Below are positions 25,561-62,362 of a DNA stretch of 64,000 nucleotides, in pieces. This DNA comes from an uncultured Planctomycetia bacterium (GTDB lineage: Bacteria > Omnitrophota > Gorgyraeia > Duberdicusellales > 4484-171). The position numbers and the translations under genes are program-made. The notes under the pieces were generated by a model. That model had not been told where the DNA came from. It did no database searches and saw only the letters and a program-made list of their open reading frames with translations. Positions within the stretch are counted from its first letter, which is position 1. Each line of letters opens with the position of its first letter. The stretch spans positions 64,608 through 128,607 of the forward strand of contig CAZHYN010000002.1 in NCBI GenBank assembly GCA_964536865.1. Reading direction: 5' to 3'.

Positions 25561-26073
25561 CTAAAATTCAAGAGACTTTAATCTCTCTACATCTTTAAGT
25601 ATTCTCCTGTGGGAAGAAAAAGGTATGTAAGGAATTTCTTTCTTTCTAAAAAATCTTGCCTCTTTTAATTCATTATTTACGAAAATCCTATCCTTAGAAA
25701 CCCTTACCAAATAAGCTATTGCCAGAATAGTCCCGTATTTCTTAGTCTTCTGAATATAAACTCCTATTAGATTAGCAATTTCTCCTTCTATCTTAGTTTC
25801 TTCTCTTAACTCCCTTAAACAAGCCTCTCGAGGGTCTTCTTCCCACTCAACAAAACCTCCGGGAAGTGCCCATTTATTCTTTCCAGGCTCCACATTCCTC
25901 TTAGCTAAAAGAATTTTTCCTTCCTTGTCAATCGCTACACCCACTGCTACCGGTAGAGGATTTTTGTAATGTATCCACCCACACCTAAAGCAAATTTGCC
26001 GAAGACAGCCGTCTATCTTTCGCCATCTTAAAGAGTGACTACAAAAAGGACAAAATTTAAAGTTGGTGTTCAT
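25561..26073 (-). CDS. Nudix hydrolase with N-terminal zinc ribbon (NudC-like architecture)
   Basis: CPFCSH...CFRCG ribbon; Nudix box GGFVEWEEDPREACLRELREETKIE. Confidence 0.75.
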   Translation of the reverse strand: MNTNFKFCPFCSHSLRWRKIDGCLRQICFRCGWIHYKNPLPVAVGVAIDKEGKILLAKRNVEPGKNKWALPGGFVEWEEDPREACLRELREETKIEGEIANLIGVYIQKTKKYGTILAIAYLVRVSKDRIFVNNELKEARFFRKKEIPYIPFSSHRRILKDVERLKSLEF

Positions 26074-26336
26074 CTCTTACACACTCCATCATCCGAGCAA
26101 GGCGGCCTATCGCAACGCTCACTTCTTCCACAACAGGTTCTTCCAGGAGAATTACTATTTTTATAATCAGTAGCGTAGAAGCCTGAGCCTTTAAAAATGA
26201 AACCTGCCCCTCCTTCAATAAGACGCCTAACTTTCTGACCACACCGGGGACAAACTTTTACCGGCTCCTCACTCATACTTTGAAATTTCTCAAACCTATA
26301 ACCGCACTCTTCACATAAATACTCATAAGTAGGCAT
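26070..26336 (-). CDS. FmdB-family zinc-ribbon protein with Cys-rich C-terminal extension
   Basis: MPTYEYLCEECGYRF...CPRCG. Confidence 0.55.
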   Translation of the reverse strand: MPTYEYLCEECGYRFEKFQSMSEEPVKVCPRCGQKVRRLIEGGAGFIFKGSGFYATDYKNSNSPGRTCCGRSERCDRPPCSDDGVCKR

Positions 26337-26346
26337 TCTATCCTCC

Positions 26347-27168
26347 TTATCTTTCTAAGTATGCTATTATCTTCTCTATTATTTCATCTGTAACTTTAGA
26401 AGCAGCTAAATCTTTATTAAAATATACAAATGGTTTGCCTGAATCAGAAAGCTTAACAATTTCAGGCTCAACCGGTATTCTCCCTAAGAAAGGAACATTC
26501 AACTTTCTCGCTGAAGCTTCTGCCCCTCCCCTACCAAACAAATCTATCTCTTTTCCACAATAAGGACAAATGAAACCACTCATATTCTCTATTATCCCAA
26601 TTACAGGAACGTTTAACTCTTTAGCAAACAATACGCTCTTGCGGGAATCTAAAGTAGCTACATCCTGAGGAGTAGTAACAACTACTGCTCCATTCAGGTT
26701 TGGTATAAGCTGACACACGCTTAAAGGTTCGTCTCCCGTACCTGGAGGAGAATCTATTACTAAATAATCAAGTCTTCCCCAATTTACATCAGATAAGAAT
26801 TGCTTAATTACGCCCATCTTAAGAGGGCCCCTCCATATAACAGGCTTCTCCTGGTCTTTGCCGACAAAAGCAAGGCTAATTGCCTTAAGATTAGGAAGCA
26901 CTTTTATAGGCTCAATACCCTTATCTGAACCTGTAACCCTTGCTCCCTCTACTCCCAGCATTTTAGCAATATTAGGGCCATGAATATCCACATCTAATAT
27001 ACCAATTTGCTTACCCCTAAGAGCTAAACTGTAGGCTAAATTTACAGCTATGGTAGTCTTTCCTACTCCACCTTTCCCACTTATAACAATAATCTTATAG
27101 TTTATGCCGCACATTTTCTCCTTAAGACGTTCGTCTTGGGCTATCTTCTCTTCATTTATATTCTGCAT
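26347..27168 (-). CDS. Mrp/NBP35 (ApbC) family Fe-S cluster carrier ATPase
   Basis: GKGGVGKTT P-loop; CPYCG cluster-bridging motif. Confidence 0.85.
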   Translation of the reverse strand: MQNINEEKIAQDERLKEKMCGINYKIIVISGKGGVGKTTIAVNLAYSLALRGKQIGILDVDIHGPNIAKMLGVEGARVTGSDKGIEPIKVLPNLKAISLAFVGKDQEKPVIWRGPLKMGVIKQFLSDVNWGRLDYLVIDSPPGTGDEPLSVCQLIPNLNGAVVVTTPQDVATLDSRKSVLFAKELNVPVIGIIENMSGFICPYCGKEIDLFGRGGAEASARKLNVPFLGRIPVEPEIVKLSDSGKPFVYFNKDLAASKVTDEIIEKIIAYLER

Positions 27169-27192
27169 TACTTCCCTCCTGAAAACAGAAAG

Positions 27193-28053
27193 TTATGTAA
27201 TCTCTTCCTCTAATCTATACCAGATTTTAGTAACCTCTCTCTTAGCTTCTGTATCCTGGTATTCTATAATTGTTTTTCCTTCTACCATAGCCTTTACTAC
27301 AGACTCGTCAAATTTTATTTTGCCAATTATTGGAATATTATTAATCTGGCAGTAATTTTCTATTCTTTCAGTAACTTCAGTATTTAAATTAAATTTATTT
27401 ATTATCAGTTTAACAGAAACTCCAAAATGCTTAGCTACCTTAATAACTCTATCTGCATCATGCAAGCCTGATAAAGTAGGCTCAACCACCACTATTGCAT
27501 AATCTAAGCCTGATAAAGAAGCAATTACCGGACATCCTATCCCTGGTGAACCATCTATAATTATCAAACTACAATTTTCTTTCTCGGCTATTTGCTTTGC
27601 CTTTTCCCTGACCAAGCTAACGAGTTTGCCTGAGTTTTCTTCAGCTACTCCCAATCTGGCATGGATTAATTTACCAAATCTTGTATTAGATATAAACCAC
27701 TCTCCACAAATCTTTTCCTCCATTCTAATAGCCCCAGCAGGACAAACGTAGCTACAAAAACAGCAACCTTCACAGGAAATAGGGTCAACCACAAAATCCT
27801 CAGTTATAGCAGAAAAACGGCATACAGAGAGGCATTTTCCACAGCGTTGGCAAAACTTCTTATCAATCTCTGCGACTTTACCACTTTTAAACTTATGTCT
27901 TTCTATAATTTCAGGTTTAAGCAAAAGATGTAAATCTGCTGCGTCTACATCACAATCAGCAAAAACAGCATCCTTAGCCAAAGAAGCAAAACCAGCAGTA
28001 ATCACAGTCTTACCTGTCCCGCCTTTTCCACTAATAATTCCAATCTGCTTCAT
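27193..28053 (-). CDS. MinD/ParA-superfamily ATPase with inserted 2x[4Fe-4S] ferredoxin domain (COG1149 type)
   Basis: GKGGTGKT P-loop; CQRCGKCLSVC and CEGCCFCSYVCP clusters. Confidence 0.8.
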   Translation of the reverse strand: MKQIGIISGKGGTGKTVITAGFASLAKDAVFADCDVDAADLHLLLKPEIIERHKFKSGKVAEIDKKFCQRCGKCLSVCRFSAITEDFVVDPISCEGCCFCSYVCPAGAIRMEEKICGEWFISNTRFGKLIHARLGVAEENSGKLVSLVREKAKQIAEKENCSLIIIDGSPGIGCPVIASLSGLDYAIVVVEPTLSGLHDADRVIKVAKHFGVSVKLIINKFNLNTEVTERIENYCQINNIPIIGKIKFDESVVKAMVEGKTIIEYQDTEAKREVTKIWYRLEEEIT

Positions 28054-28886
28054 TTTACCAATTCTTTAATCTTATAATAGAGAATTTTAAACTTTTCTCT
28101 ATATTCAGGAAATCCTTCTATAAGAGGGATGCCTTTTGAATAAGCAACTGCTATTTCTTTTTTAAAAGGAATCTGCATAAGAATAGGGAGCTTCTTTTGT
28201 CTACAAAACTCATCTACTTTGTTATCACCCAATTCAGACCGATTAATAATTACACCAAAAGGAATCTTAAGTTTTCTCAACATCTCCACCGCTAAAGCCA
28301 AATCATTAAGGCCAAAAGGGGTAGGCTCAGTAACTAAGATACAAAAATCACTCCCCTTTACTGCTTCAATAACAGGGCAGGAAGTACCGGGAGGAACATC
28401 AATAATAACATTTTTACCAGAATTTATATGGGCTTTGACCTGGCTAATAAGGGGAGGAGAAATCGCTTCACCAATATTAAGCCTTCCTCCCACAAATTCT
28501 AAATCGTTTTTTCTACCTATTTCAATAACACCTATTTCCCTCTCAACCTCTTTAATAGCTCCTTGAGGACAAAAGAAGCTGCAAGCTCCACAACTATGGC
28601 AAAGTTCTTTAAAGACTAAAACATCCTTATTCTTTATTACCGCAATAGCTTTATAAGCACAGACTTCTGCACACTTTCCGCAGAAATTGCACTTCTCCTT
28701 ATCTATCTGAGGAACCAGGACAAAAGCTTTTACTTTCTCTGTTATCTGAGGCTTTATAAATATATGAGAGTTAGGCTCCTCTACATCACAATCTAAAAGC
28801 TGGGCAGAAGGTAGAGAAAGAGCTAAATTTACAGCAATAGTAGTCTTTCCTGTTCCACCTTTACCTGAAGCAACTGAAATAACCAT
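28050..28886 (-). CDS. MinD/ParA-superfamily ATPase with inserted 2x[4Fe-4S] ferredoxin domain (COG1149 type); paralog of the gene at 27193-28053
   Basis: GKGGTGKTT; CNFCGKCAEVC and CHSCGACSFFCP. Confidence 0.8.
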   Translation of the reverse strand: MVISVASGKGGTGKTTIAVNLALSLPSAQLLDCDVEEPNSHIFIKPQITEKVKAFVLVPQIDKEKCNFCGKCAEVCAYKAIAVIKNKDVLVFKELCHSCGACSFFCPQGAIKEVEREIGVIEIGRKNDLEFVGGRLNIGEAISPPLISQVKAHINSGKNVIIDVPPGTSCPVIEAVKGSDFCILVTEPTPFGLNDLALAVEMLRKLKIPFGVIINRSELGDNKVDEFCRQKKLPILMQIPFKKEIAVAYSKGIPLIEGFPEYREKFKILYYKIKELVK

Positions 28887-28985
28887 AGTTTATATAATTT
28901 GATGATAAGCCATCATTATCTGCTAAAACTTATAAGATATCCCCAAAGAGGTGGGTCTTCTGGAGGATAAAACCTCTTCTATCTA

Positions 28986-29198
28986 TTACCCACGAACCAT
29001 CCTGGTTCCACACTTAGGACAATTCAAGCTATAACAAGGAACACCTACCTGATGAGGCACTCTCATCCCACAACTAGGACAAACACAATTTCCTCCTGGA
29101 CCTGCACCGGGACGATTTCCACCCATTCTACCTCTACCTCTACCACCACCGCTGCCTCTACCTCCTCCAATTGGGCCTCTTCCATCTCCAAAAGGCAT
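28986..29198 (-). CDS. Small Gly/Arg-rich protein with C-terminal CxxC..CxxC zinc ribbon
   Basis: GGGRGSGGGRGRGRMGG low-complexity N-terminus; CPSCG...CPKCG. Confidence 0.5.
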   Translation of the reverse strand: MPFGDGRGPIGGGRGSGGGRGRGRMGGNRPGAGPGGNCVCPSCGMRVPHQVGVPCYSLNCPKCGTRMVRG

Positions 29199-29212
29199 CT
29201 TTTACCTCCTTT

Positions 29213-29530
29213 TTAGGCTCTACGAGAATCATTGGAAAGTTTATCTATTCGAGCTAAAACAGAAAAAAGGGTTTCTCTTAACTTCCCAAGTTCATCTTTA
29301 ATTTCTTTTACTTCTCTATCTTTATTTGCTTTTTCAGAAGAAACCATCCTTATTGCCTGAAATGGACAAAATCTTGTGCATACTCCGCAACCTACACATT
29401 TATCCTCATCAATCCAGGGCCTCCCTCTCACCACTCTTATAGCACCTTGGGGACAACTCGAAATACACTGAAGACAACCCCTGCATATACTTAAATTAAC
29501 TACAGCTTTTTTAGATTCTCTAATGCTCAC
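29213..29530 (-). CDS. 2x[4Fe-4S] ferredoxin-like protein with coiled-coil C-terminal tail
   Basis: CRGCLQCISSCP and CVGCGVCTRFCP, then EVKEIKDELGKLRETL heptads. Confidence 0.7.
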   Translation of the reverse strand: MSIRESKKAVVNLSICRGCLQCISSCPQGAIRVVRGRPWIDEDKCVGCGVCTRFCPFQAIRMVSSEKANKDREVKEIKDELGKLRETLFSVLARIDKLSNDSRRA

Positions 29531-29846
29531 ACTTATCTGCGCTTTCTTTAAGAACCCCTTTTATAAAATCGTCTATTACCTTATTGATTTCTCCCTCAGC
29601 AAAAATAACCTGGATATTTTTTTCTCTGAATAACTCCTGAGCTCTTGGACCCATACCTCCGCAGATTATCACATTTACCTCCATCTTTGAAAGATATTCA
29701 GGCAAAAAACCTGGAGTATGACCAGGATTAGAAATAGTCTTTCTTTGCTTTACGCTTTGGCCCTCAGCATCAACAATCTCATACTCAAGACATCTTCCAA
29801 AATGAGAACTTACTAAATCTCCCTCTTTAGCTATGGCTATCCTCAT
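29520..29846 (-). CDS. NifX/NifB-like dinitrogenase FeMo-cofactor-binding family protein (COG1433, MTH1175-like)
   Basis: MRIAIAKEGDLVSSHFGRC...IICGGMGPRAQELF. Confidence 0.75.
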   Translation of the reverse strand: MRIAIAKEGDLVSSHFGRCLEYEIVDAEGQSVKQRKTISNPGHTPGFLPEYLSKMEVNVIICGGMGPRAQELFREKNIQVIFAEGEINKVIDDFIKGVLKESADKCEH

Positions 29847-30472
29847 TCTTCTGCTCCTTTCTCTAATTCCTGAATTCTTTTGTTTATTAGGCTCATCTGT
29901 TGTTTTAAAAAATCTAACTGCTGTTTTAAAAATTGAAGCTCCTGCTCTTTAGAAACTTGAGGTTGATTAACCTGAGGATAAAATCCTGGTTGAAAAAACC
30001 TTCCTCTTCCCATACCCATACCTCTTCCCATCCCAAAGCCAGGCATAAACCCTGGAGTTGAATAAGGTATATTTTGTTGAGGATTATTAGCTAATGCAGA
30101 AGGTCCCATCATTCCAAAGTGGCCGAGAACATTAGGGTTAGGAGTGGGGTTGAGCTGGTTTTTTTTAAATTTATCTATGGCCTCTCTTACAGTTAAACCA
30201 GCTAAACCGGTAATAACCTGTATACCTGAAGCCTGAAATACTCCAAAAGAATTAGGTCCCACATTACCAGTCAATACTGCATTTACCCCTTTATTGGCTA
30301 TAAACTGGGCACTGGATATTCCTGCTCCTGAAGGAGAACTAATATTAGGATTAGAGAGACTTTCAAAACTATCCTTTTCTGTATCATAAATTATAAAATA
30401 AGCACATCTTCCAAAACGAGGATCAACCAGAGAATCTAAATTTCCCCCCTGAGAAGTCACACATATCTTCAT
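29843..30472 (-). CDS. NifX-like (Nitro_FeMo-Co) domain fused to a Gly/Met/aromatic low-complexity linker and a C-terminal coiled coil
   Basis: MKICVTSQGGNLDSLVDPRFGRCAYFII, then GFMPGFGMGRGMGMGRGRFFQPGFYP, then KEQELQFLKQQLDFLKQQMSLINKRIQELEK. Confidence 0.7.
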   Translation of the reverse strand: MKICVTSQGGNLDSLVDPRFGRCAYFIIYDTEKDSFESLSNPNISSPSGAGISSAQFIANKGVNAVLTGNVGPNSFGVFQASGIQVITGLAGLTVREAIDKFKKNQLNPTPNPNVLGHFGMMGPSALANNPQQNIPYSTPGFMPGFGMGRGMGMGRGRFFQPGFYPQVNQPQVSKEQELQFLKQQLDFLKQQMSLINKRIQELEKGAEE

Positions 30473-30538
30473 AAAACACCCCTCCTTCTAAAAATTGGAA
30501 ATCCTAAATTCCAATAATTTGGAACAAAGTTATTAAAA

Positions 30539-30859
30539 TTAAGATTCTAACTCCTGGACTCTTTTCTCAATCTGCTCAAGTTGGGCCTTCAACGCCTCTG
30601 CTTGCTGTTTTAATAGCTGTAACTCCTGTTCTTTAGTAAGTTGAGATACTCCGTAAGGGTCAAAAGGCAAAAATTGGCCTCTTTGAGCCTGGGGCATATT
30701 CTGCCAAGCCCAATTCGCCTGCCAGGTAGGCCAACTCCCGGTCATTAGATACTGAGCCCCTGGAGGCAAAGTCCCCCAACCCGGAGAAAAACCAAACCTC
30801 ATCCAGCCAGGTAAACCGGTAAGATAATACATATACCTGTTGCCTCTTCCTCCAACCAT
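30539..30859 (-). CDS. Small Trp/Gly/Pro-rich protein with C-terminal coiled coil (DUF5320-like architecture, tentative)
   Basis: GWMRFGFSPGWGTLPPGAQYLMTGSWPTWQANWAWQNMPQ, then KEQELQLLKQQAEALKAQLEQIEKRVQELES. Confidence 0.5.
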   Translation of the reverse strand: MVGGRGNRYMYYLTGLPGWMRFGFSPGWGTLPPGAQYLMTGSWPTWQANWAWQNMPQAQRGQFLPFDPYGVSQLTKEQELQLLKQQAEALKAQLEQIEKRVQELES

Positions 30860-30919
30860 ACTAACACCTCCCTCTCTTAGTTTGCAGCTCAGAATCAGTA
30901 GCCTTGATTTATAAATTAA

Positions 30920-31147
30920 TTATTGGCCTCTCTCTAATTCCTGAATTCGGGCATCTATATCCTTAAGTTGAGCTTCTAAGTTTTGTCTTAATTGCCTCAA
31001 ATAACTTAATTCATCCTGCCCAAAAAAGAAAGGAGAAACCCCCCCGAGATAAGGTAATCCATATCCGTAAGAAGCAGGCCAATAAGGATAAAAATAAGGC
31101 ATCATAAACCAACCTGCTGGACCCATCCCAAAAGGCATAACCATCAC
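30920..31147 (-). CDS. Small Met/Tyr/Phe/Gly-rich protein with C-terminal coiled coil (paralogous tail)
   Basis: MMVMPFGMGPAGWFMMPYFYPYWPASYGYGLPY, then LRQLRQNLEAQLKDIDARIQELERGQ. Confidence 0.5.
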   Translation of the reverse strand: MMVMPFGMGPAGWFMMPYFYPYWPASYGYGLPYLGGVSPFFFGQDELSYLRQLRQNLEAQLKDIDARIQELERGQ

Positions 31148-31176
31148 CCCCCTTTTAAAAATTAAAAGCTGAAAAA

Positions 31177-31410
31177 TTACCTCGTCTGCCCCAAAGATTG
31201 ATTACTTCCGTAACCAAAAGGTGTATAACTAAAAGGATTTATTGGCCCATATATACCTGTCCACCACCATCTGGGAAGCCAGGGAAACCACCTGCAGAAA
31301 GGATAAGGATTGCCTCTTCCCCAGCCAAAGTAAGGAAAGTAAGGATAGCCGTAGCCAAAATAACCCCACTTCCAAAAACCAGGACCCCAAAAATTTCTTC
31401 CTCTAGGCAT
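31177..31410 (-). CDS. Small extremely aromatic/Gly-rich protein (W/Y/F/G/P ~60%), no coiled coil
   Basis: FWGPGFWKWGYFGYGYPYFPYFGWGRGNPYPFCRWFPWLPRWWW. Strong SD GGAGGTGA 7 nt before the ATG. Confidence 0.4.
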   Translation of the reverse strand: MPRGRNFWGPGFWKWGYFGYGYPYFPYFGWGRGNPYPFCRWFPWLPRWWWTGIYGPINPFSYTPFGYGSNQSLGQTR

Positions 31411-31444
31411 TTTTAATCACCTCCTCTTTTAAATATCATTACCA

Positions 31445-31461
31445 TTGAAAATCATTTTCAA
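31445..31461. promoter_or_regulatory. Predicted Fur-family operator: perfect 7-1-7 palindrome TTGAAAATCATTTTCAA, 35 bp upstream of the aromatic-rich ORF
   Basis: Perfect inverted repeat, identical (bar the centre base) to the box at 31945-31961. Confidence 0.55.
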
Positions 31462-31479
31462 CAATATATTAAAAAAAAA

Positions 31480-31929
31480 TTAGCTACAATTTGAACATAA
31501 ACCGTAAAAATGAATTTGATGAGTCTCTATTTTAAAATTATGTTTTTTAGATAATCTTTCTTCTAAACCCTTTATTAATTTTTGTTCATCCTCTACAAAA
31601 TCTTTATAATCAATTATCTTCCCACACTTTCTGCAAATTAAATGGTGATGATGTTCTATACCTGGTCCCTGGCTTAATTCAAATCTGGCCCTTCCGTCTC
31701 CAAACTCATATTTCCTTACCAGGCCCATATTAAAAAGAAGTTCTAAAGTTCTGTAAACTGTAGTAAGCCCTATCCCCGGATACCGCTTATGAACTTTCAG
31801 GAAAATATCCTCAGCACTAAGGTGCTTTTTTTCTTTAGTCAAAACATCCAAGATAACCTGCCTGGGAAAAGTCCACCTAAAACCACAACCTCTAAATCTT
31901 GCTTCTAACCATCTCGGGCCAAAAGGCAT
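31480..31929 (-). CDS. Fur-family metalloregulator (Fur/Zur/PerR)
   Basis: Winged-helix ...GLTTVYRTLELL...; HHHHLICRKCG and C-terminal CSNC metal sites. Confidence 0.85.
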   Translation of the reverse strand: MPFGPRWLEARFRGCGFRWTFPRQVILDVLTKEKKHLSAEDIFLKVHKRYPGIGLTTVYRTLELLFNMGLVRKYEFGDGRARFELSQGPGIEHHHHLICRKCGKIIDYKDFVEDEQKLIKGLEERLSKKHNFKIETHQIHFYGLCSNCS

Positions 31930-31944
31930 AAAACTCCTTCCTTA

Positions 31945-31961
31945 TTGAAAATGATTTTCAA
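31945..31961. promoter_or_regulatory. Predicted autoregulatory Fur-family operator: TTGAAAATGATTTTCAA (plus-strand sequence), overlapping the predicted +1 region of the regulator's own promoter
   Basis: Perfect palindrome between the -10 and the RBS AAGGAAGGAG. Confidence 0.6.
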
Positions 31962-31971
31962 TTTCAATAAA

Positions 31972-32000
31972 ATAATACCATAATAAGCTTCTCCTGTCAA
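31972..32000 (-). promoter_or_regulatory. Sigma70-type promoter of the Fur-family gene (-35 TTGACA at 32000-31995, 17-bp spacer, extended -10 TGgTATTAT)
   Basis: Read on the minus strand. Confidence 0.45.
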
Positions 32001-32011
32001 GAGTAAAAGAC

Positions 32012-32024
32012 CTGGAGTTTCCCC
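32012..32024 (-). promoter_or_regulatory. GGGGAAACTCCAG motif 11 bp upstream of the -35, identical in sequence and spacing to the copy at 22199-22211
   Basis: Exact 13-mer shared, with the same 11-bp gap to TTGACA in both promoters. Confidence 0.5.
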
Positions 32025-32236
32025 AAAATTTTTAAGCCAGTAAAGAGAAGAGGAAGAGCTGTTTTTCGGTACTTTGCAATTTTCTTTCCTTCCACGGCCA
32101 CTCCATCTTATATTAAATAGAATTCTAAATATCCCCAAGGCTAAGCAATAGTGTTTGAAGGGTGATATCTGAAAGAATCTTTTTGCCTTTTCATAAATCT
32201 TCTTAAGAAGAATATTTAATCCCAAATTTTTCATTA

Positions 32237-32297
32237 CCTGCCTGACGGCAGGCCTGCCCGCTGATGTTTACCCCGCCCTTTCCTTGAAAGGGCGGGG
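32237..32297. repeat. GC-rich tandem hairpins (CCTGCC-TGAC-GGCAGG and CCCCGCCCTTTC-ctt-GAAAGGGCGGGG) downstream of the LPS gene block; copy A of a repeat family
   Basis: Strong stems in an AT-rich background; homologous to the element at 46944-47022. Confidence 0.55.
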
Positions 32298-32305
32298 TTC
32301 GGGGG

Positions 32306-33349
32306 TTACTCTAAGTGATCCCCCTTTAGAATCTTTCTAACTAAGTCAAAAACCTCCTCAGGTTTTATTTCTCTAAGACATAAAAATCCCTTATTACAGT
32401 TATGAGCTAAGCACTTTTTGCACCCTACATCTTTATGTAAGTAGAAAGACTTCTCTCCTAACGGCCTCCATCTTTGAGGAGAAAGACCTTGGTTGTTTCT
32501 TCCAAATATGGAGATAACAGGAGTATTTAAGCTAGCGGCAATGTGCACAGGACCACTATCATTGGAAATAAAAATATTGGCTCGCTTCAAAAGAGAAGCT
32601 AAAGAAGAAATATCTAATCTTCCTCTTAAGTCGATTAAATCAGGATGTTCCTCGATAAGAAGCTGGCCATAAACTATCTCTGATTTAGAAGTAATTACTG
32701 CAATTTTAGGATAAAATTCTTCTTTTAGTAATCTTATCAAAGATGAAAAGTGTCTTTGAGGCCATCTCTTGGATGGGCAAGAAGCAGAAGGATGAATTAC
32801 AAAGAGTAAATCATCTTCTTCTACTCCTCTACTTTTAAGTAACTGCTCTATATAGCGTTCCTTTTCTTCTTTTATGGGAAAATATAGAGACTTATCAATT
32901 ATCTTAATATCTATCTCTCTGAGAATATCTAAAGTATACTCCAACTCATGCTTCTGGCCTTTATCTTTAGTATGGGGAATTCTTTTAGTAAGAAGAAAAC
33001 CACATTTTTTATCCCAGCCAACTCTAAAGGGAATTCCTGCAAAGTAGGTAATTAGGTGTACTCTATTTGTAGGATGCAAAATTATTGCCCAATCAAATTT
33101 TTTTCTTCTCAACCATAAAGAAAATTTTGCAGAAGAAAACCAGCCTTTATGTCTTCCGTATTTATCATAAATGATTACCTCATCAAGATAAGGATTTCCC
33201 TCTAATATATCCTTAGTGTAAGGCCGGCACATAAAAGCAATCCAACTATTAGGAAAGGCTATTCTTAAGTTCTTAATCACTGGCGTAGAAAGGACTACAT
33301 CTCCAATTCTGTCTGTACGAACAATCAATATTTTTTTAACTCCTCTCAT
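32306..33349 (-). CDS. Glycosyltransferase family 9 (heptosyltransferase-like)
   Basis: ILIVRTDRIGDVVLSTPV N-terminus typical of GT9. Confidence 0.8.
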   Translation of the reverse strand: MRGVKKILIVRTDRIGDVVLSTPVIKNLRIAFPNSWIAFMCRPYTKDILEGNPYLDEVIIYDKYGRHKGWFSSAKFSLWLRRKKFDWAIILHPTNRVHLITYFAGIPFRVGWDKKCGFLLTKRIPHTKDKGQKHELEYTLDILREIDIKIIDKSLYFPIKEEKERYIEQLLKSRGVEEDDLLFVIHPSASCPSKRWPQRHFSSLIRLLKEEFYPKIAVITSKSEIVYGQLLIEEHPDLIDLRGRLDISSLASLLKRANIFISNDSGPVHIAASLNTPVISIFGRNNQGLSPQRWRPLGEKSFYLHKDVGCKKCLAHNCNKGFLCLREIKPEEVFDLVRKILKGDHLE

Positions 33350-46943: not shown

Positions 46944-47022
46944 AAGTAAAACCCGAACCACGGGCTTACCCTCGCCCTTTCAAGGAAAGGGCGAGGTGGC
47001 TTTCTGTGGTTCGGGGTAAATA
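46944..47022. repeat. GC-rich nested palindrome: outer stem CCCGAACCAC/GTGGTTCGGG around inner CCTCGCCCTTTC-aag-GAAAGGGCGAGG; copy B of the family also seen at 32237-32297
   Basis: Shares the CGCCCTTTC...GAAAGGGCG core and TTTACCCCG / GTTCGGG flanks with copy A. Confidence 0.6.
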
Positions 47023-61255: not shown

Positions 61256-62362
61256 CTACTTACTCATACTTCGCCAATAATTCTTAAGGAGCTTCTTAAG
61301 AGAAAAAACCATCTCTTTTGTCTCTTCTAACTTAAAATCAGGGCTAGGTAAGCTTCTCTCTTTAAAATCATCCAAATCAACTTCCTGATTCAATACGCCG
61401 GCAATTAGGGCGGTCCAGCAAAATGGTAAGAGCTCTTCATTGTATCCTGAGGTAACTAAATCTACGCTCTTACCTTGACAAACTTCTTCGGCTATCTCCC
61501 TGGTGTAGCTACCAATCATCTTAAAGCCATCAAGAGTTAATCCCAAATTAGTTAAATTATCTAAATAGTGGGGATCACTTCCTCCATACCTAATTATTAA
61601 TTGAGGAGAAAACTCTTTTGCTAAAGGAAAAATTATCTTCTCAAATAGATACTGATAAGACTTATTAGAAGCACCTATAGGAAGAGGTAAGTTAATAGTG
61701 AATCCTTTTCCCCTTCCCTCTCCTATTTGATGTATAAATCCTGTACCAGGATAAATTGTTGCGGGATTTTGATGTAAATCTATAAATAAAACGCAAGGGT
61801 CGTTATAGAAAAATTGAGCCACTCCATTCCCTGCGTGAGCATCGGTATCTAAAACTAAAATTCTTTCTAACTTATACTTTCGCTTAAGATTCTCTACACC
61901 TATAGCTATATCGTTATAAATGCAAAATCCTTCTCCAAAATCAGGCTGAGCGTGATGTAGCCCCCCTCCTATAACTATTGCCTTCTTTAAACTTCCCCTA
62001 ACCACCATCTCTAATGCTTCTACCGATGAGCCTACAATAACTCTGGCTGCCTCATCTATTCCTTGAGGAAATCTGCCTGTTAAGGGATTAATGTTATCAC
62101 TACTTAGGTAGCGAAAAAGGTAAGGAACTTCTATACCAGAAGAGGCACTTTTTACTACATCGATATAATCCTGAGTATGAACTAAACAAAGAAGTTGGTC
62201 ACTAGCGGGAGAAGCCAGTATGTGTTGAAAGTAATTTTTAAAATCTGGAAACCTTCCCTTAAAGAAATTTAAAAAAATCTCAAATCTTTTCCCCCTAAAG
62301 GGGTGACCTTCTCCAAAATCATATTTCTCTATCTCGGGATGGTAAAAGAAACCTGCTTCCAT
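61256..62362 (-). CDS. Histone deacetylase-family (arginase/deacetylase fold) protein, AcuC-like
   Basis: GGLHHAQPDFGEGFCIYNDIAIG catalytic region. Confidence 0.8.
   Translation of the reverse strand: MEAGFFYHPEIEKYDFGEGHPFRGKRFEIFLNFFKGRFPDFKNYFQHILASPASDQLLCLVHTQDYIDVVKSASSGIEVPYLFRYLSSDNINPLTGRFPQGIDEAARVIVGSSVEALEMVVRGSLKKAIVIGGGLHHAQPDFGEGFCIYNDIAIGVENLKRKYKLERILVLDTDAHAGNGVAQFFYNDPCVLFIDLHQNPATIYPGTGFIHQIGEGRGKGFTINLPLPIGASNKSYQYLFEKIIFPLAKEFSPQLIIRYGGSDPHYLDNLTNLGLTLDGFKMIGSYTREIAEEVCQGKSVDLVTSGYNEELLPFCWTALIAGVLNQEVDLDDFKERSLPSPDFKLEETKEMVFSLKKLLKNYWRSMSK

Follow-up and report, generated by a model that had tools for sequence, protein, structure and literature searches.

A candidate Fur-controlled operon that combines ORP-type iron-sulfur genes with DUF5320-family small proteins in Candidatus Omnitrophota

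How clusters of iron and sulfur (Fe-S) are stored, moved and delivered in strict anaerobes is poorly understood: the ORP complex is without a firm function, and IssA is, to our knowledge, the only known Fe-S storage protein. A locus in a 64-kb stretch of DNA from a Candidatus Omnitrophota bacterium (the window, by which we mean the whole stretch analysed) joins these two themes, since it combines ORP-type ATPases and an Mrp carrier with a NifX-type protein that bears an IssA-like cationic linker, and it adds a gene for a Fur-family regulator and several small proteins rich in Trp. What might such small proteins do among Fe-S carriers, and to what signal would they answer? We propose, with moderate confidence, that the locus is an autoregulated, Fur-controlled operon for ORP-type Fe-S handling, in which coiled-coil tails of the Pfam family DUF5320 would join a NifX-type carrier to small proteins with Trp/Arg motifs. 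The locus combines known kinds of system, namely an ORP cluster, DUF5320 proteins and a Fur regulon. Three things appear not to have been described before: that two sharply conserved N-terminal motifs of DUF5320 proteins (motifs A and B below) are paired and fused, that these motifs are linked in a near-obligate way to NifX/ORP-type genes in two domains of life, and that Fur, DtxR or DUF134 can stand in for one another as regulators.

Every gene between positions 26070 and 31929 lies on the minus strand, as do all genes described below, and neighbouring genes are separated by short gaps or overlap; the gene order and coordinates of an earlier first-pass annotation of this DNA were confirmed. 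Families were assigned through matches to Pfam and NCBIfam hidden Markov models (HMMs). A genome scan with the pattern FPWLPR[WG]W gave 173 loci, of which we retained the best 80, all in metagenome-assembled genomes (MAGs) of anaerobic Bacteria and Archaea; they include Omnitrophota, WOR-3, Acetothermia, Aminicenantes, Dehalococcoidia, Hadesarchaea, Methanophagales, Alkanophaga, Bathyarchaeia and Thermoplasmata, and no Thermococcales locus is among these best 80 of the 173. Neighbourhood counts were taken over 82 loci (L-numbers) from both Bacteria and Archaea.

The Fur-family regulator and its predicted operators

The first gene of the series (31480-31929) encodes a 149-aa metalloregulator which, by its profile match, belongs to the Fur family, as the first-pass annotation had held: it scores 121.9 bits against PF01475, with a cut-off of 23.1, and covers 119 of the 121 model positions. 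Its five closest solved structures are all Fur proteins (from 6e-29, for 9ire, to 9e-22), with PerR (3.5e-19) and Zur/FurB (2e-16) further down among the matches.

Upstream of this gene stands the best promoter-like site within 25900-32400, a candidate sigma-70 promoter of the fur operon (P1; TTGACA-17-TATTAT with an upstream TG, 11 of 12 matches; 31972-32000, minus strand). Between P1 and the fur ribosome-binding site is a perfect 8-1-8 palindrome, TTGAAAATnATTTTCAA (as TTGAAAATGATTTTCAA; Fur box 1, 31945-31961), which begins 11 nt past the P1 -10 hexamer. Fur box 2 (TTGAAAATCATTTTCAA, 31445-31461) lies over the -35 hexamer of a weaker candidate promoter, P2 (TTGAAA-18-GATATT), before the gene for a 77-aa protein, box and promoter together spanning 31432-31461 on the minus strand. 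The palindrome, which the first-pass annotation had already described as perfect, has only two exact copies in the 64 kb and none in 100 dinucleotide-preserving shuffles. When up to three mismatches are allowed, the count in the window is at chance level, so that only the exact copies carry weight. That annotation had also placed the operators on either side of a metallocluster gene cluster; the boxes are real, but they flank the fur gene and both are upstream of the cluster. A third Fur-box-like site with two mismatches (TTGAAAGTAATTTTTAA, 62225-62241) was rejected as an operator, as it falls inside a 368-aa open reading frame (ORF; 61256-62362) and chance predicts matches at that stringency.

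The positions of both boxes on promoter elements suggest those of a repressor, and expression is therefore predicted when the co-repressor metal is scarce. We infer both the direction of regulation and the iron signal from this layout, which suggests that iron-loaded Fur would repress the cluster and that iron limitation would induce it.

Boxes of this kind are also seen near fur in other phyla. A fur gene was found in 10 of the 82 loci, at a median distance of 15 bp from the gene that carries motif A (the counterpart of the 77-aa protein). In L002, L003, L004, L007, L014 and L016 a box with zero to two mismatches coincides with the fur start or lies a short way upstream of it, and L002, L003 and L016 have a further box in the gap from fur to the motif-A gene. 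L034, a Clostridia-labelled MAG in which the region upstream of fur is missing, has only a three-mismatch site between the two genes. The boxes at the fur start are kept in records labelled Omnitrophota, Planctomycetia and Aminicenantes, and the exact 15-mer core TGAAAATnATTTTCA occurs in four of the 82 loci, all of them with fur.

Two other features adjoin the regulator. A 109-aa ORF (31905-32234, minus strand) overlaps the fur start, Fur box 1 and P1 and resembles translated regulatory DNA; no Pfam match is on record for it in the related contig L002, and it probably does not represent a gene. A perfect, GC-rich hairpin (CCCCGCCCTTTCAAGGAAAGGGCGGGG, 32271-32297) stands immediately upstream of the fur promoter, with another hairpin after it; the RNA fold of this region has a predicted energy of -42.8 kcal/mol (z = -5.2). 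A copy of the first hairpin at 46970-46996 is changed at two positions without loss of stem pairing (CCTCGCCC...GGGCGAGG), and the two look like a repeated terminator or an element of the repetitive extragenic palindrome (REP) type in an otherwise AT-rich window.

Small proteins, their tails and their neighbours

Of the residues of the 77-aa protein (31177-31410), 35% are Trp/Tyr/Phe, 18% Gly and 14% Pro, a sum of 67% where the first-pass annotation had estimated about 60%; the protein has an isoelectric point (pI) of 10.0, no acidic residue and one Cys. It has 85 homologues, and its family forms 197 clusters at 50% identity in 1.84 billion proteins. Their hallmark is motif A (CRWFPWLPRWWW; in fuller form GNPYPFCRWFPWLPRWWWTGIYGP), within which C39, R40, P43, P46, R47, W49 and W50 are invariant. 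The 106-aa protein (p106; 30539-30859) has 241 full-length homologues and carries motif B (TGLPGWxRFGxSPGW), with 14 invariant positions in 62 sequences and the consensus RxMYYLTGLPGWMRFGFSPGW...P..AQYL, ahead of a coiled-coil tail. Between the two genes is a 75-aa ORF (p75; 30920-31147) with a Trp/Tyr/Pro/Gly/Met-rich N-terminus (MPFGMGPAGWF...) and a tail of the same kind. Its start is most likely the ATG at 31138, which makes it 72 aa long with MPFGMGP at the N-terminus, because its homologues and the L002 gene call begin there; homologues that start MPFG[ML]GP were found in at least 17 loci. Each of the small ORFs is preceded by a GGAGG-type ribosome-binding site, a strong Shine-Dalgarno sequence. 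Spurious ORFs or chance low complexity can be ruled out by the 241 and 85 homologues, the invariant motifs, the ribosome-binding sites and the synteny. The residue-by-residue conservation of the motifs across two domains of life also sets aside the low-complexity or condensate reading that had earlier been given to the 77-aa and 106-aa proteins.

As a separate observation, the Fur homologue and three of the small proteins start Met-Pro-(Arg/Phe)-Gly (MPFGP, MPRGR, MPFGM and MPFGD; 31480-31929, 31177-31410, 30920-31138 and 28986-29198, respectively), and MP(R/W/F)G occurs within the first 40 residues of 51 of the 85 motif-A ORFs of other loci. This shared start could possibly reflect N-terminal processing or a common recognition element.

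The tail belongs to a family that the first-pass annotation had named as one to search against, DUF5320 (PF17253), whose Pfam gathering score is 27 bits. NifX209, the 209-aa NifX-type protein encoded next in the series, passes at 42.7 bits over residues 137-203, p106 (23.7 bits) and p75 (14.6 bits) fall below, and the 77-aa protein has no match to the Pfam model. Homologues of the 106-aa and 77-aa proteins (P0005, P0031, P0080, P0131, P0133, P0164 and P0178) do pass, at 27.2-36.2 bits, with those of the 106-aa protein at 27-28 bits. An HMM of the tail only scores p106 at 56 bits, NifX209 at 55 and p75 at 44. The tails have hydrophobic residues at seven or eight of their ten a/d heptad positions, and AlphaFold2 models residues 76-105 of p106 as one helix, with a predicted local distance difference test score (pLDDT) of 75-86, in agreement with the coiled coil proposed earlier. 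The tail had been assigned to NifX209 and to three stand-alone proteins; NifX209 and two stand-alone proteins have it, but the 77-aa protein does not. The last is nonetheless a tail-less DUF5320 relative, because archaeal motif-A members (Methanocellales, Thermoproteota and Nitrososphaeria) carry the tail and pass the Pfam cut-off.

To judge from these profile matches, the shared "low-complexity plus coiled-coil module" is Pfam DUF5320, real but already catalogued. The novelty claimed for it in the first-pass annotation did not hold, since the fusion of DUF5320 to NifX domains is common in databases: more than 100 of the 120 best NifX209 homologues are already annotated with both PF02579 and PF17253, some with a ferredoxin domain as well. 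That the tail is shared among proteins of one locus did hold. It was found on 167 ORFs in 79 loci, behind motif B in 61, a NifX domain in 49, motif A in 26 and other N-termini in 29, and two to three tail-bearing ORFs are encoded per locus in 60 of the 79. The ferredoxin of the cluster, which had been described as a coiled-coil protein, does have a heptad pattern in its C-terminal tail (hydrophobic at 8 of 12 a/d positions), but the tail-only HMM scores it at -0.8 bits, which rules it out as a DUF5320 tail.

NifX209 (29843-30472) consists of a NifX-type (Nitro_FeMo-Co) domain, which matches PF02579 at 90 bits, a cationic Pro/Gly/Met/Arg linker and the DUF5320 tail. The closest structures to the domain are Desulfovibrio gigas ORP (2WFB, 1.7e-23) and then MTH1175 (5e-18); the linker (residues 106-172) has a pI of 10.9, 18% Gly, 16% Pro and no acidic residue. 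The 108-aa NifX108 (29520-29846; PF02579, 68.7 bits) resembles the C-terminal Di-Nase domain of MrpORP, matching positions 265-364 of the MrpORP model NF041136 at 94.8 bits. Mrp273 (26347-27168), an Fe-S carrier ATPase of the Mrp/NBP35 kind that corresponds to the P-loop half of MrpORP, scores 360.5 bits over positions 3-250 of the same model, under the 450-bit cut-off because the Di-Nase domain is here a separate gene, NifX108. The remaining genes are those for the 105-aa 2x[4Fe-4S] ferredoxin with its heptad-patterned C-terminal helix (29213-29530; Fer4 families); a 70-aa Gly/Arg-rich protein (MPFGDGRGP...; 28986-29198) that has a CxxC...CxxC zinc ribbon with weak zinc-ribbon matches and whose N-terminal 36 residues are 50% Gly with a pI of 12; a 278-aa P-loop ATPase of the COG1149 MinD/ParA type into which a 2x[4Fe-4S] ferredoxin domain is inserted (28050-28886; ParA, CbiA and Fer4) and a second COG1149-type MinD-ferredoxin ATPase of 286 aa (27193-28053; ParA/CbiA plus Fer4), both Orp3/Orp4-like; and an 88-aa FmdB-family CxxC zinc-ribbon protein (26070-26336; TIGR02605, 74 bits), the last gene to recur with the cluster. 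Identical or near-identical proteins were found in Candidatus Omnitrophota MAGs.

The small ORFs proved to be conserved beside COG1433, COG1149 and Mrp genes in other genomes; a lack of such conservation is what the first-pass annotation had named as refuting its reading. Motif-A and motif-B genes are found together in 62 of the 82 loci, on the same strand in all 62 and within 300 bp in 47, and a NifX-type gene is near in 72, with a median gap of 150 bp to the motif-A gene. Relatives of the 278-aa and 286-aa COG1149 ATPases are present in 51 and 50 loci, respectively, those of the 70-aa zinc-ribbon protein in 41, of Mrp in 38, of the ferredoxin in 25 and of FmdB in 8. Pfam matches of representatives identify other recurrent neighbours: DUF134 (43 loci), radical SAM (30), MBL-fold (26), a DtxR-type iron-dependent repressor (14), ARMT1/DUF89 (13) and FeoB (9), besides DUF364 and thioredoxin. 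DUF134, a sigma-70 region-4-like helix-turn-helix protein, is the commonest regulator-like neighbour, always within 3 kb of the cluster; it co-occurs with Fur in one locus only, and this near-absence of co-occurrence suggests that each serves as regulator in place of the other. L011, P0339 and P0341 each have motifs A and B fused into a single chain, and in P0416 and P0436 the fusion partner of motif A is a 2x[4Fe-4S] ferredoxin.

Beside these fusions we also noted a wider shuffling of modules (L011:552-1001, from an uncultured archaeon; P0339, P0341, P0416, P0436, P0364 and P0458) that includes motif B, motif A and tail in one chain, a ferredoxin with GRGMG repeats and motif A, and proteins in which the coiled-coil tail occurs twice. 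Another type of N-terminal motif, GRGPFSxLPPWxRPGWLYGRGACWW, was seen in L013 and L043. In the 64-kb window as a whole, 55 of the 57 ORFs of at least 150 aa are on the minus strand, and scans of the window detected no Rfam family and no tRNA gene.

A proposed mechanism and its alternatives

In the mechanism that we propose, the operon would encode an ORP-type machinery for Fe-S or metal-sulfide clusters (two COG1149 ATPases, Mrp/NBP35, two NifX-type proteins and the ferredoxin) together with accessory proteins of the DUF5320 family. A Fur dimer would bind the 8-1-8 palindrome at two places, one a short way past P1 on its downstream side and one across the -35 hexamer of P2, so that iron-bound Fur would shut off both fur and the cluster and iron limitation would switch both on. 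The four-heptad C-terminal helix of DUF5320 may serve as an oligomerisation handle that joins NifX209 to two of the small proteins, and motifs A and B, which do not appear to fold alone, may act with the NifX domain, most likely by contacting carrier proteins or anionic Fe-S species in the manner proposed for the cationic tail of IssA. Both the tethering through coiled coils and the IssA-like binding of iron sulfide are putative steps. Expression at low iron would agree with the Fur-repressed suf operons, with the presence of DtxR-type repressors and FeoB in the same cluster of other lineages, and with Methanococcus voltae, where levels of NifX proteins of the IssA clade go up along with those of DtxR and FeoAB when the cells sense that Fe(II) is limiting (PMC9431491).

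Several points weigh against this mechanism. Fur is present in only 10 of the 82 loci and DUF134, on which we found nothing functional in the literature, in most. The tail of the ferredoxin is no DUF5320 tail. In the literature searched there was nothing on the function of DUF5320, only passing mention of the name, and no DUF5320 experiment. AlphaFold2 gave mean pLDDT values of 59.9 for the 106-aa protein (from an alignment of 62 sequences) and 49.9 for the 77-aa protein (52 sequences), the tail helix being the one confident part, with no confident fold for the motif-A or motif-B region and hence no support for a mode of binding. The function of the ORP complex itself is unsettled, being described as 'putatively involved in cell division' (PMC6345978).

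One alternative, which we consider unlikely, is that the locus serves Fe-S storage as IssA does. The IssA of Pyrococcus furiosus (PF2025) has an IPR003731 domain, a Pro-rich stretch and a cationic, aromatic, Gly-rich tail in which W, G and R are the key residues, with a single Cys, and which is proposed to wrap anionic thioferrate (PMC5524996). NifX209 and the cationic small proteins would likewise nucleate and coat an inorganic, thioferrate-like iron-sulfide polymer. The tail function would be supplied partly in cis, by the linker, and partly in trans, by the 77-aa and 106-aa proteins, and the particle would be built up by the coiled coils. The pI of the linker and the basic, aromatic, Gly-containing make-up of the 77-aa protein with its one invariant Cys would fit the composition of the IssA tail, and the NifX domain is near MTH1175, the structural reference of the IssA clade. 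However, the published limits of that clade are a pI of at least 9, fewer than five Cys and, over the last 40 residues, a Gly content of 20% or more (Vaccaro et al. 2017). NifX209 has the IPR003731/NifX-type domain and two Cys but falls outside these limits, with a pI of 8.9 and 2% Gly over those 40 residues, because its C-terminus is a coiled coil; the linker alone would fit the composition. IssA is moreover made when iron and sulfide are abundant, and its particles contain no other protein (PMC5524996), whereas the operators here predict expression at scarce iron, which argues against a pure storage role of the IssA kind. The conservation of the motifs residue by residue also suggests a specific partner rather than binding by composition.

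An extended form of our own proposal, which we regard as doubtful, would see in the DUF5320 proteins the partners that have been missing for carriers of the NifX type. Anionic Fe-S species would be bound by motif A (CRWFPWLPRWWW), motif B and the Gly/Arg/Met linkers, and the four-heptad zippers would assemble NifX proteins, ferredoxin and peptides into an iron-regulated, multi-protein depot or hand-over scaffold for Fe-S. If true, this would amount to a multi-subunit counterpart of IssA, common to Bacteria and Archaea and plugged into ORP/Mrp delivery.

It is rather improbable that the regulator senses something other than iron, as a PerR-, Mur-, Zur- or Nur-like paralogue would, and that the cluster answers to peroxide or another metal. 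The assignment to Fur sensu stricto, the iron-sensing subtype, is itself probable rather than proven, because all NCBIfam equivalog cut-offs were missed (NF051892, 131 bits with a cut-off of 220; NF006999, 95.6 with a cut-off of 146); models of PerR were also matched, and sensing of peroxide, Mn or Zn would be possible too. This is a further point against our proposal. The half-site TGAAAAT differs from each of the Bacillus subtilis half-sites for Fur (TGATAAT), PerR (TTATAAT) and Zur (TCGTAAT), but it is one change from that of Fur, two from that of PerR and three from that of Zur. The ranking of the solved relatives, with Fur proteins in the five best places and PerR and Zur/FurB weaker, and the DtxR-type iron repressors and FeoB genes in the same cluster of other lineages also speak for an iron sensor.

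We give still less credence to the idea that the Trp/Arg/Pro motifs are interfacial anchors for the membrane or cell pole, where the coiled coil would hold NifX/ORP-type proteins. Tritrpticin and indolicidin are interfacial Trp/Arg peptides, and motif A (RWFPWLPRWWW) resembles them in composition; neither motif folds alone in AlphaFold2. In Desulfovibrio, MrpORP is found at one cell pole and Orp3 and Orp4 have MinD-like C-terminal amphipathic helices (PMC6345978). The conserved neighbourhood, however, contains no transmembrane segment or lipid-related gene, an invariant Cys and exact Pro spacing would be needless for simple interfacial binding, and motif A is fused to soluble ferredoxins. Finally, that the small ORFs are precursors of ribosomally synthesized and post-translationally modified peptides, or antimicrobial peptides, processed by a neighbouring radical SAM enzyme is very unlikely: they are short, Trp-rich and cationic and such a gene accompanies 30 of the loci, but its product matches only the generic PF04055, this window's cluster has none, the conserved neighbourhood is without a transporter, protease or immunity gene, and, unlike leader and core peptides, the motifs hardly vary between Bacteria and Archaea and occur in fusions with ferredoxin, NifX-type linkers and coiled coils.

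The proposal of a Fur-controlled operon with DUF5320 partners gives this large, uncharacterised family a set of genomic partners, two sharply conserved motifs and a likely regulatory signal, and the conserved Fur operator, with DtxR and DUF134 as alternative regulators, offers a simple experimental entry. If the small proteins do organise Fe-S carriers, they would be a new class of component in anaerobic Fe-S biogenesis, present in many uncultured lineages of Bacteria and Archaea.

Relation to known systems

In Desulfovibrio vulgaris Hildenborough the ORP complex consists of Orp3, Orp4, Orp5, Orp8 and Orp9/MrpORP, where Orp3 and Orp4 are COG1149 MinD-like ATPases with two [4Fe-4S] motifs, Orp5 and Orp8 are single-domain Di-Nase proteins and MrpORP is a fusion; a physical complex and the transfer of Fe-S from Mrp to COG1149 proteins have been shown biochemically, and only there (PMC6345978). 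The Omnitrophota locus resembles it in the clustering, in an anaerobe, of two COG1149 ATPases, NifX/Di-Nase proteins and an Mrp/NBP35 carrier, and in the fact that D. gigas ORP is the closest solved relative of the NifX domain of NifX209. It differs in that MrpORP is split into Mrp273 and NifX108, that the ORP-like NifX protein has a DUF5320 tail and that the locus has, in addition, a zinc-ribbon protein and three or four small proteins related to DUF5320. The control differs as well. The Desulfovibrio operons are under a sigma-54 promoter with a cognate enhancer-binding protein, whereas here there are Fur and two operators, the locus contains no gene for an enhancer-binding protein, and sites resembling sigma-54 -24/-12 elements (TGGCAC-N5-TTGC) are no more frequent than chance predicts, none of them lying in an intergenic region upstream of the cluster, so that control of the Desulfovibrio kind was ruled out.

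With IssA the locus shares a NifX-type domain followed, in NifX209, by a Pro-rich, cationic, aromatic and Gly-rich segment that is probably disordered, and a place in the iron and sulfur metabolism of anaerobes. NifX209 ends, however, in an acidic coiled coil rather than a Gly-rich tail, the Trp/Arg-rich parts are here mostly on separate small proteins with fixed motifs, and the predicted expression at low iron is the opposite of that of IssA.

As regards DUF5320, the Pfam model captures mostly the tail. The family description covers neither the N-terminal modules with motif A or motif B nor the way in which these are paired and fused, and the 77-aa protein, which has lost the tail, goes unrecognised by the model.

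Classical Fur regulons include an autoregulated fur gene and Fur-repressed Fe-S assembly operons such as suf of Escherichia coli. The present locus is like them in having an inverted-repeat operator on the regulator's own promoter and a second one on the Fe-S-related genes downstream. It is unlike them in that the operator is the 8-1-8 palindrome TTGAAAATnATTTTCAA and not the 7-1-7 form TGATAATnATTATCA, and in that the genes predicted to be under its control are those of the ORP and DUF5320 type and not suf or isc.

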